From NCBI RefSeq assembly GCF_003334315.1, contig NZ_QOWR01000001.1: DNA of 64,000 nt; one strand, given 5' to 3'. Source of the stretch: Escherichia coli. GTDB lineage: Bacteria; Pseudomonadota; Gammaproteobacteria; Enterobacterales; Enterobacteriaceae. The position numbers were made by a program. Positions 12,001 to 15,000 of the stretch are shown here, in pieces (within the stretch, counting starts at the first letter, position 1; the number at the start of each line of letters is the position of its first letter).

Positions 12001-15000
12001 GCCAGCAGTTCGTCCACCTTTTTACGTGTGCCGCCGTTGCTGCTTATACTGCGTCGAACTTTGACGACATGCAATTTTGCGCGCTGATACCACTCACGCG
12101 TTAACATCGTATCGTGATTGGAGATCAGCACTGGAATATGGCGCTCAACCAGACCTTCGGCGATCTCCGCCAGATGCGCTTGTTGTTCAAGCGTAAAACT
12201 GTTTGTGTGATACGCCGTAAAGTTGGCGGTCGCAGACAGCGGTGCATAAGGCGGATCGCAATAGACGACGGATGCATCATCTGCGCGCGCCATGCTATCG
12301 GCGTAAGACTCACAATAGAAAAAGGCATTCTGCGCTTTTTCAGCGAAGTGATACAACTCTGCTTCCGGGAAATAGGGTTTTTTGTAGCGGCCGAAGGGCA
12401 CGTTAAACTCACCGCGCAGATTGTAACGACACAGGCCGTTGTAACCGTAGCGGTTCAAATATAAAAACAGTACCGCCCGACGGAACGGATCCTGGCTTTT
12501 GTTGAACTCTTCGCGGAACTGATAGTAAACCTCGGCGCAATTTGTTTCGGGAACAAACAGCTCGCGTGCGGCCTGTACGTACTCATCAGTACGCATCTTC
12601 ACAATGTTATAGAGACTGATCAGGTCGCTATTGATATCGGCAAGGATATAACGAGAAAAGTCGGTGTTGAGAAACACCGACCCGGCACCTACAAAAGGCT
12701 CAACCAGACATTCGCCCTTGGGCAAATGCCGTTTAATATCATCAAGCAGGGGATACTTGCCCCCTGCCCACTTCAAAAAAGCGCGATTTTTCTTCATGCT
12801 GACTAACTAATTACACCTTCTCCGGCTGTGGAGAAAGCTCCGACAGCATCCAGCGCTTCAGGCAACTCCCGCAACGATAAACCATTGCGGGAGATAACCT
12901 TGATTACTTCAGATCGGCCTGTACCTGACGCAGCGGTTTCGCCCACGGGTTTTTGGCCTGGACATCTGCTGGCAATGTAGATACCGCTTTTTTCGCCTCT
13001 TCTTTCGAAGCGTACACGCCAGAAACCAGGACATACCACGGCTGACCATTACGCGTCGTTTCATAGACAACGTAGTTTTTCAGATTCTCTTTCTTCGCCC
13101 AACCGTTCAGGTTGTCGTAGTTAGAGGAACTGCTCAGCTGCAGAGTGTAATGGCTGGACGGTGCCGATTTCAACGAACCAACATTACCTGCGGTCTTCGC
13201 CCCAGCAGCGGGTGTTGCTGTGGTTTGCGCCGGGGATGCCGTCTGTACTGGAGCCGTAGTCGCCGTCTCTTTTGGTGCTGGCGTAGAAGTCGCAGCCGGT
13301 GCCTTCGTGCTCGCCACAGGGGCAGCTGGTTCAGTACGCTTCGGCGTCTGTGCTACCGGCTTCGGCTCCGTTTTCACGGTTGCTTGCGATTTTTTCGGTT
13401 CAATCACTGCCTGCTGGCGAGCTGGACGCGTAGTGGCCGGACGTTCAGCGGTTTGCGTTTTCGCCGTTTCACGCGATGCATTGCCATTGCGAACAGGCGC
13501 GACAGTCGCGGGTTCGGTCGGCAATGTGGAATTGACCGCCACATTGTTCAACTGTTGCTGATTTTGTGGCTGGGTCAGCGCATTGTTCAGGTCACCCTGC
13601 ACTTCAACACGTTGTTGACCATCCGTTGCCGCCGGGGTTTGCCCTTGAGTCGGCGTAGAAGAGATCGGTGGCAGAGAAACATCCTGCTGAGTATTTTCCG
13701 CAGACGTGGTTCCCGGCGCTGGCTGCACCCCATTCGCCTGATCGGTCGCATTGCCTGCAAGATCAATACTCTTCTCACCAGACGCGGTTTGATCGCTGGA
13801 AGAGGTCGAGGGGGCTTTTAGCGCAGAACCGATACCGATGATCAACAGCAGTAGAACCAGAATGCCGACGCCCATCATCATATACTGACGAGAAGCGGGT
13901 TTACTGGCTGCTTTTTTGCGCTTACGCGGACGACGCTCTACGCGCTCTTCATCCACGGTTTCATCTTCGGATTCGTCAATTTCTTCTTCGATTTCCGGTT
14001 CCTCATTGCGCTCTTTTTGCGCACGAGTCGGACGGCGATCGTCAGTGTCATCAAGTTCAATATCATCAAAATTGATCTGCGGTTCGCCACGTTCAGTACG
14101 CTCAGAACGTTCAGAAGATTGACGAGAACGACCAGTACGACGATCGCTGGGATCGGGTTTCAGCTCGTCTTCTGGTTTGAATTCATCCATTTAACACCCC
14201 ACTAAAAGGTTAATGCTTACCACGTTGCAATTAACCTGAAGCTAATAGACCGCTTGATAAGCGGCCTGACCTTTCTTGTTGTTACGCTGATTGACAATCG
14301 GCAATGGCGTTAAGAACAAGCTCGTGCGAAACGCCGCTGCGAACTTCACTCTTACCAATTGCCAACGGAAGAATTAAGCGCATCTCTCCCGCAAGGACTT
14401 TCTTGTCACGCAGCATATGCGGTAAATACGCCTGCGCGGACATTTCGCGCGGCCCATTGACCGGTAACCCAGCCCGCGTGAGCAGGGTTATAATACGCTG
14501 CGTTTCGGCAGAACTAAACTGCCCGAGACGTTCCGACGTCCGCGCCGCCATCACCATACCCGCAGCGACCGCTTCACCATGTAACCAATTGCCATACCCC
14601 ATTTCAGCTTCAATGGCATGACCAAAGGTGTGTCCCAGATTCAGTAAAGCACGTAACCCGGTTTCGCGCTCGTCGGCGGCGACAACTTCTGCCTTCAGTT
14701 CACAACAACGGCGAATACAGTACGCCATTGCCGGACCGTCCAGACGCAACAACGCATCCAGATTCTCTTCCAGCCAGTTAAAAAACGCACCGTCAAGAAT
14801 AATGCCGTATTTGATGACTTCTGCCAGCCCCGACGCTAACTCACGCGGGGGAAGCGTTTTCAGACAGTCGAGATCCACCACCACTGAAGCAGGCTGGTAG
14901 AACGCGCCAATCATGTTTTTACCGAGGGGATGGTTGACCGCAGTTTTGCCGCCAACGGAGGAATCGACCTGCGACAGTAACGTCGTCGGGACTTGAATGA

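Follow-up and report, generated by a model that had tools for sequence, protein, structure and literature searches.

Long antisense open reading frames opposite the linker of Escherichia coli damX: very probably non-coding shadows of a periplasmic tether

Introduction

FtsN and the DamX paralogue DedD are built like DamX: the N-terminus lies in the cytoplasm, a single transmembrane helix follows, and a flexible periplasmic linker leads to a SPOR domain at the C-terminus. DamX is localised to the septum by its SPOR domain, stimulates PBP1B and is associated with a division defect when DedD is lost (PMC7642682, PMC8998562); no other inner-membrane SPOR protein has a periplasmic linker as large, and the linker of DedD is unstructured by nuclear magnetic resonance (PMC7642682). 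Here we analyse the DNA encoding the DamX linker in a stretch of 64,000 nucleotides from Escherichia coli (NCBI RefSeq assembly GCF_003334315.1, contig NZ_QOWR01000001.1; the window), in which a preliminary description had pointed out a low-complexity, GC-rich segment of damX at 13150–13900 and, on the opposite strand, two long open reading frames (ORFs) that it took to be spurious. Their coordinates and sizes proved exact: 13150–13821 with 223 amino acids for the first (ORF1) and 13220–13561 with 113 amino acids for the second (ORF2).

A general excess of long ORFs in alternative frames has been described (Mir et al. 2012, PMC3454372), and antisense overlapping genes have been argued for in E. 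coli (PMC7457138). In a genome-wide translation screen, PIRT-Seq, three of five nested candidates were detected by western blot (PMC12350097). Using a combination of frame and codon analysis, comparison across species and strains, structure prediction and database searches, we conclude with high confidence that the segment is the tether region of damX and that both plus-strand ORFs are non-coding shadows of it.

Results

The gene is damX, as the preliminary description had it: the encoded protein matches the NCBIfam profile NF008153 over its full length (846 bits against a cut-off of 256, with residues 1–428 aligned to profile positions 1–424 of 424) and carries a SPOR domain (Table 1). ORF1 lies opposite DamX residues 124–347, and its first base pairs with position 3 of a damX codon, so that it reads as the codon-for-codon reverse complement of damX; its ATG start is the complement of the His347 codon CAT and its TAG stop the complement of the Leu124 codon CTA. 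The translation is rich in Arg (25%), Leu (13%) and Cys (7%), just as had been described, with Gly at 9%.

A codon-aligned antisense frame of this kind can be closed only by a TTA, CTA or TCA codon on the sense strand. All three are rare: among long ORFs in the window, 13% of Leu codons are either TTA or CTA and 10% of Ser codons are TCA, and damX as a whole contains only two codons of the three kinds, CTA at Leu113 and CTA at Leu124. With 7 Leu and 20 Ser in the linker, 2.9 antisense stops are expected there (probability of none, 0.044), compared with 4.2 in ordinary proteins of the same length (222 codons); the low Leu content of the linker thus lowers the expectation slightly. The proposal that biased composition suppresses stops on the opposite strand therefore holds in part: composition is a minor contributor, and the main cause of the open antisense frame is frame geometry together with codon usage.

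The lengths of ORF1 and ORF2 are no more than chance gives. Resampling of synonymous codons on the fixed DamX protein yielded an antisense ORF of at least 223 amino acids with P=0.09 and one of at least 113 amino acids with P=0.30, and permutation of the damX codons gave P=0.34 and P=0.17 for the same two lengths. Ranked by longest antisense ORF, damX comes sixth among the 46 genes (long ORFs) of the window. The five genes with longer aligned-frame antisense ORFs, mrcA, glpD, glgP, malP and feoB (Table 1), encode ordinary proteins without biased composition, which argues that such ORFs are generic in this genome.

Conservation that would speak for the antisense ORFs was not found. Among 79 damX sequences (78 loci from 80 species-level genomes, plus the window), the ORF1 frame contains at least one stop across the equivalent of residues 125–346 in 73; the start-forming CAT is present in 31 and a stop-forming CTA or TTA in 11. 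In E. albertii, a stop in the ORF1 frame falls at residue 214. Aligned-frame antisense ORFs are long in most species (median 147 amino acids), and their boundaries shift from species to species, as is expected for shadow ORFs. Closer to the window, seven of eight other E. coli strains have an intact ORF1 and the eighth, APEC 102026, a version cut to 174 amino acids, and the site of ORF2 holds an ORF of at least 90 amino acids in only one of the eight.

Selection on the two readings of the linker DNA differs in the same direction. The ratio of nonsynonymous to synonymous divergence (dN/dS) is 0.09–0.13 in the DamX frame versus 1.16–1.94 in the ORF1 frame, and the synonymous divergence (dS) of damX is higher in the linker than in its flanks, contrary to what is expected under a second coding constraint. 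The 17 nucleotide differences between the window and K-12 damX, all of them inside the linker, change five residues of DamX versus 14 of ORF1, and between E. coli strains 6–12% of ORF1 residues differ versus 1–2% of the DamX residues encoded by the same DNA. These comparisons indicate that the DamX linker is under purifying selection and that the antisense frames are free of it. The earlier judgement that the antisense ORFs are not genes is borne out by these ratios, by the frame stops in 73 of 79 loci and by the lack of a family match.

Neither ORF matched a family in NCBIfam, and ORF1 had no match in Pfam at E-values up to 10. Against 5.8 billion protein clusters, ORF1 matched 13 small clusters, with neither names nor context to point to a family, as compared with a main E. 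coli DamX cluster of 6081 members; gene callers thus hardly ever call ORF1, and some of the matches span only part of it, which suggests gene calls on fragmentary contigs. In every RefSeq record inspected, damX alone is annotated at the locus, and an Rfam scan of 11000–16500 at E-values up to 1 found no known RNA on either strand. A scan of 12700–14400 found no plus-strand sigma-70-like site upstream of 13150, with the proviso that consensus scans may miss weak signals, and inspection by eye found no clear Shine–Dalgarno sequence within 30 nucleotides upstream of the ORF1 ATG, where a weak signal is possible.

Our literature searches turned up nothing on transcription or translation antisense to damX. 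The sole paper found that ties the gene to unconventional translation is that on PIRT-Seq, which tested a nested candidate, ‘IN-damX’ (PMC12350097). Its tagging primers place it in an open frame of 73 codons on the minus strand (13938–14159), +1 relative to damX and within the N-terminal cytoplasmic part, which ends at a TAG at 13940–13938. IN-damX therefore lies on the sense strand and outside the linker, and we rejected it as a counterpart of ORF1 or ORF2.

The composition of the segment is that of the Pro/Thr/Ala/Gln-rich linker noted at the outset, with these four residue types making up 54% of DamX 124–347, the part opposite ORF1 (38 Ala, 34 Thr, 26 Pro and 22 Gln of 224). Its GC content of 58.3%, against a mean of 52.8% (standard deviation 3.5) for the window, places it in the top 4% of 672-base-pair intervals. 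By codon position the GC content is 62%, 61% and 52%; with the excess confined to the first two positions, its source is amino-acid content and not mutational bias. The preliminary description of 13150–13900 as low-complexity and GC-rich thus stands for the GC content and the biased composition, but the linker DNA is not repetitive: Tandem Repeats Finder detected no tandem repeat in the segment even at minimum score, and the direct repeats of the linker are three in number, short (9–22 nucleotides), two-copy and at chance level. Nor does low complexity extend over 13822–13900, which codes for the last cytoplasmic residues and the membrane-spanning helix. A 9-base-pair direct repeat, CATTGTTCA, occurs at 13542–13550 and 13581–13589, 39 base pairs apart. 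The sole tandem repeat in damX is found at 14089–14116, where 3.1 copies of the 9-nucleotide unit ACGTTCAGA encode SERSERTER of the cytoplasmic N-terminus.

An AlphaFold2 model of DamX, built from 34 orthologues and of low overall confidence (mean predicted local distance difference test score, pLDDT, of 46), places a helix at residues 101–120 (pLDDT 72–82) and the SPOR fold at residues 349–426. The only matching solved structure, PDB 2LFV (‘Protein damX’), covers residues 335–428 (E=1e-55). Across the species compared, the transmembrane segment has 23 residues in 79 of 79 and the SPOR part 91–92 residues. Between the two, pLDDT is below 50 at 124–172, 174–194, 196–200, 203–205 and 220–348, with a weak helix only at 208–219. 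With low pLDDT read as a proxy for disorder and not a measurement of it, residues 124–348 are predicted to be nearly all disordered and to form a periplasmic tether. This prediction is in line with the probable disorder proposed earlier for the linker, and agrees with the literature on this linker and that of DedD (PMC7642682).

Within the tether, the truly low-complexity, indel-tolerant part is the Ala/Pro/Thr/Lys-rich spacer of residues 240–337, which has the lowest sequence entropy (2.8–3.1 bits), conservation of 0.49–0.80 and pLDDT of 30–41, and into which most inserted alignment columns of the 79 species fall. The membrane-proximal half, residues 139–231, holds motifs that are conserved in these 79 Enterobacteriaceae. 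Ten-residue conservation there reaches 0.92–0.99 at residues 171–180, 191–200 and 221–230, the same level as in the SPOR domain, and the columns Q192, R194, E196, V197, G199, L201, N202, A204, L205, Q213 and S221–A231 are invariant in 34 species; the motifs are kept even in DamX homologues of about 40% identity. A search with this half against 1.84 billion representatives returned only 40 clusters, and the aligned full-length clusters are DamX-like, with the transmembrane helix, the motifs and, in most of them, the SPOR domain. The module thus appears confined to the DamX family. A limited literature search found no mention of the motifs, which are possibly known to specialists already.

The linker had also been put forward as a candidate for length variation between strains. 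Such variation is found between species, where linker length ranges over 214–248 residues with 28 distinct lengths among the 79, but hardly between E. coli strains, in which DamX is nearly fixed at 428 amino acids. The length of damX was identical in 59 of 60 and in 39 of 40 rank-spread genomes (two samplings from 5426), and the exception in both was GF4-3, the lowest-ranked strain. GF4-3 and HS carry a 12-base-pair insertion encoding TPAA (Table 1), which brings damX to 1299 base pairs and DamX to 432 amino acids; a query spanning the insertion was fully covered in 40 of the 5426 genomes (0.7%), and the inserted state is also seen in DamX of E. albertii, E. marmotae and cryptic-clade Escherichia. 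Larger in-frame deletions, of 13–39 residues and mostly within 288–326, occur as singleton sequences only, versus 6081 members of the 428-amino-acid cluster. In one metagenomic DamX variant (P0006), the loss of residues 201–213 is bounded exactly by the 9-base-pair repeat CATTGTTCA, consistent with occasional microhomology-mediated deletion and not with programmed variation. A second indel site is the acidic stretch of residues 60–81, which differs from species to species and also in rare variants of E. coli and Shigella.

Nucleotide diversity of the linker showed a pattern of its own. Among eight E. coli strains, the linker accounts for 42 of the 55 sites that segregate in damX, and third-position diversity is 0.069 in the linker (13150–13821) versus 0.006–0.022 in dam, the SPOR part, the N-terminal part and aroB. 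Compared with K-12, the linker is the most divergent 672-base-pair stretch in 33.8 kilobases (2.5% versus 0.16%); compared with Nissle 1917, its divergence is average (3.3% versus 3.0%), and on this ground we rejected the idea of a diversity hot spot. Flanks of low diversity and a mosaic recombinant patch account better for the pattern; the mosaic haplotypes suggest short recombination tracts and unusually conserved flanks and make recombination at the linker likely.

The surroundings of damX are conventional. The gene is single-copy and annotated in all 5426 complete E. coli genomes, and is flanked in the window by dam downstream (11961–12797) and aroB upstream (14282–15370), both identified by NCBIfam; RefSeq records of identical or near-identical DNA show the gene order of the aroK-aroB-damX-dam-rpe-gph-trpS operon. 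The damX DNA of the window is 100% identical to that of strain E308. A sigma-70-like promoter match lies on the minus strand at 13144–13173, at the boundary of linker and SPOR domain and directed towards dam (TTGAAA, an 18-nucleotide spacer and TACACT; 9 of 12 positions), and internal dam promoters are said to exist. Two irregular damX records were also met. In Citrobacter amalonaticus AUH_CA_2023_1 (L051, 1501–2773), damX is interrupted, giving 89 amino acids from the start codon, and the length of the tblastn match is not divisible by three; an error of sequencing or assembly has probably shifted the frame in this single-contig assembly. A protein cluster of 350 amino acids (P0021, 890 member sequences) comprises DamX entries without the first 78 residues, a short form that appears to reflect annotation of a downstream start codon and not a real truncation.

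Table 1. Positions of damX, its parts, the antisense ORFs and genes of the window with longer aligned-frame antisense ORFs
Feature	Position	Strand	Description or basis
damX coding sequence, cell division protein DamX	12904..14190	-	428 amino acids + stop; NCBIfam NF008153 equivalog match
SPOR peptidoglycan-binding domain, residues 345–418	12937..13158	-	Pfam PF05036, E=3.7e-14
Variable Ala/Pro/Thr/Lys-rich spacer, residues 240–337	13180..13473	-	low entropy, indels
12-base-pair (TPAA) insertion/deletion polymorphism	13284..13285	-	after DamX residue 302
Membrane-proximal linker half, residues 139–231	13498..13776	-	conserved short motifs; conservation across species
DamX transmembrane helix, residues 101–123	13822..13890	-	AlphaFold2 helix; length fixed across species
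ORF1, 223 amino acids	13150..13821	+	ATG start, codon-aligned antisense frame; judged a non-coding shadow
ORF2, 113 amino acids	13220..13561	+	GTG start, offset antisense frame; judged non-coding
mrcA	19731-22307		aligned-frame antisense ORF, 395 amino acids
feoB	37260-39593		aligned-frame antisense ORF, 247 amino acids
malP	46945-49338		aligned-frame antisense ORF, 280 amino acids
glpD	58864-60384		aligned-frame antisense ORF, 342 amino acids
glgP	60999-63446		aligned-frame antisense ORF, 327 amino acids

Discussion

Our work here leads us to read the segment as sequence for a tether that joins the DamX transmembrane helix to a C-terminal SPOR domain binding septal peptidoglycan, with the two ORFs as by-products of how that sequence is written. 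None of the 7 Leu and 20 Ser of the linker is encoded by TTA, CTA or TCA, and the aligned antisense frame thereby stays open from the complement of His347 to that of Leu124; ORF2 is an ordinary chance ORF in another antisense frame. Codons for Ala, Thr, Pro and Gln, read as their complement, account for the high GC content and for antisense translations rich in Arg/Cys/Leu or Ala/Val/Gly. We infer that no antisense protein is made. Several points weigh against this reading. The open antisense run of 305 codons lies at the upper edge of the null (P=0.04 by synonymous resampling), and no damX Ser uses TCA, a mild unexplained depletion that is weak given 46 genes. ORF1 is intact in most of the other E. 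coli strains, although this is hardly informative at 2–4% divergence; low-level antisense translation may occur; and alternative-frame ORFs have been argued to exceed in length what codon usage alone predicts (PMC3454372).

Some of the same observations could be claimed for ORF1 as a real but young antisense overlapping gene, confined to E. coli and the bacteria nearest to it and weakly translated, which we consider very improbable. Seven of the eight E. coli strains compared, and Escherichia sp. MOD1 as well, have ORF1 intact with the same ATG, the 305-codon run goes slightly beyond the synonymous-codon null, gene callers have called ORF1 in a handful of assemblies (the 13 clusters), and genes of this type have been argued for in the species (PMC7457138). 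Yet dN/dS in its frame is 1.2–1.9 even among Escherichia, and its residues diverge by 6–12% between E. coli strains versus 1–2% for DamX. Moreover, the frame is interrupted in E. albertii, ends early in APEC 102026 and has lost its start region in E. coli SCPM-O-B-8794. ORF1 has no domain or family match, no promoter-like site or clear Shine–Dalgarno sequence was found upstream, and Arg accounts for 25% and Cys for 7% of its translation. Longer aligned-frame ORFs lie opposite five ordinary nearby genes, and the damX candidate of the genome-wide translation screen is a sense-strand frame elsewhere in the gene and not ORF1 (PMC12350097).

A different account would make the linker a contingency-like locus, hypervariable in length through repeat slippage, with the open antisense frames as a by-product. 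The concentration of in-frame indels in the linker (28 lengths of 214–248 residues among 79 species) agrees with it, as do the 12-base-pair insertion allele within E. coli, the rare variants lacking 13–39 residues, mostly at 288–326, and the one 39-base-pair deletion bounded exactly by a 9-base-pair direct repeat. Slippage finds little substrate here, however, for the linker has no tandem repeat and only three short two-copy direct repeats. Length was identical in 59 of 60 and 39 of 40 rank-spread genomes, the insertion allele reaches 0.7%, the deletion variants are singletons versus a 6081-member cluster of 428 amino acids, and sense dN/dS of 0.09–0.13 shows the linker sequence to be under purifying selection. 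We therefore hold this account, too, to be highly unlikely, and retain the tether with its non-coding shadows as the explanation of the segment.

These findings fit known biology, and the shadow-ORF effect itself is already known. For annotation quality, they mean that a 223-amino-acid ORF with an ATG start, easily mistaken for an overlapping gene, should stay unannotated; more generally, opposite any E. coli gene the antisense frame aligned with its codons tends to remain open, and ORF length alone says little there. For the biology of DamX, they describe a linker with a conserved motif half and a variable spacer half at near-fixed length and leave current understanding unchanged. Mild novelty lies solely in the block of conserved motifs within what has been called a linker. 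It is conceivable, if not quite probable in our estimation, that residues 139–231 are a partner-binding module of four short linear motifs and not a passive spacer, a suggestion that derives from the pattern of conservation; PBP1B or another divisome protein would be a candidate for its partner.

Set beside known systems, the locus departs little from what has been described. The damX of the window is the same gene as that of K-12 (b3388), with a full-length equivalog match, the same gene neighbourhood and 428 amino acids; only the allele differs, with no functional difference. Compared by architecture with FtsN and DedD, DamX has a much larger cytoplasmic part, the largest linker and conserved motifs of its own at residues 139–231. 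The short essential periplasmic segment of FtsN is loosely comparable to this motif block, a parallel that we offer as an idea only. Like ORF1, the antisense and nested gene candidates of E. coli are fully embedded in an annotated gene; in contrast to ORF1 and ORF2, which fail the tests of conservation and selection, those candidates rest on translation evidence or phenotypes (PMC7457138, PMC12350097). The closest likeness is to the frame −1 shadow ORFs of bacterial genes, which are, as ORF1 is, long open frames directly opposite a real gene: nothing essential sets ORF1 apart from them, the low-Leu linker of DamX merely lowering slightly the number of stops expected.

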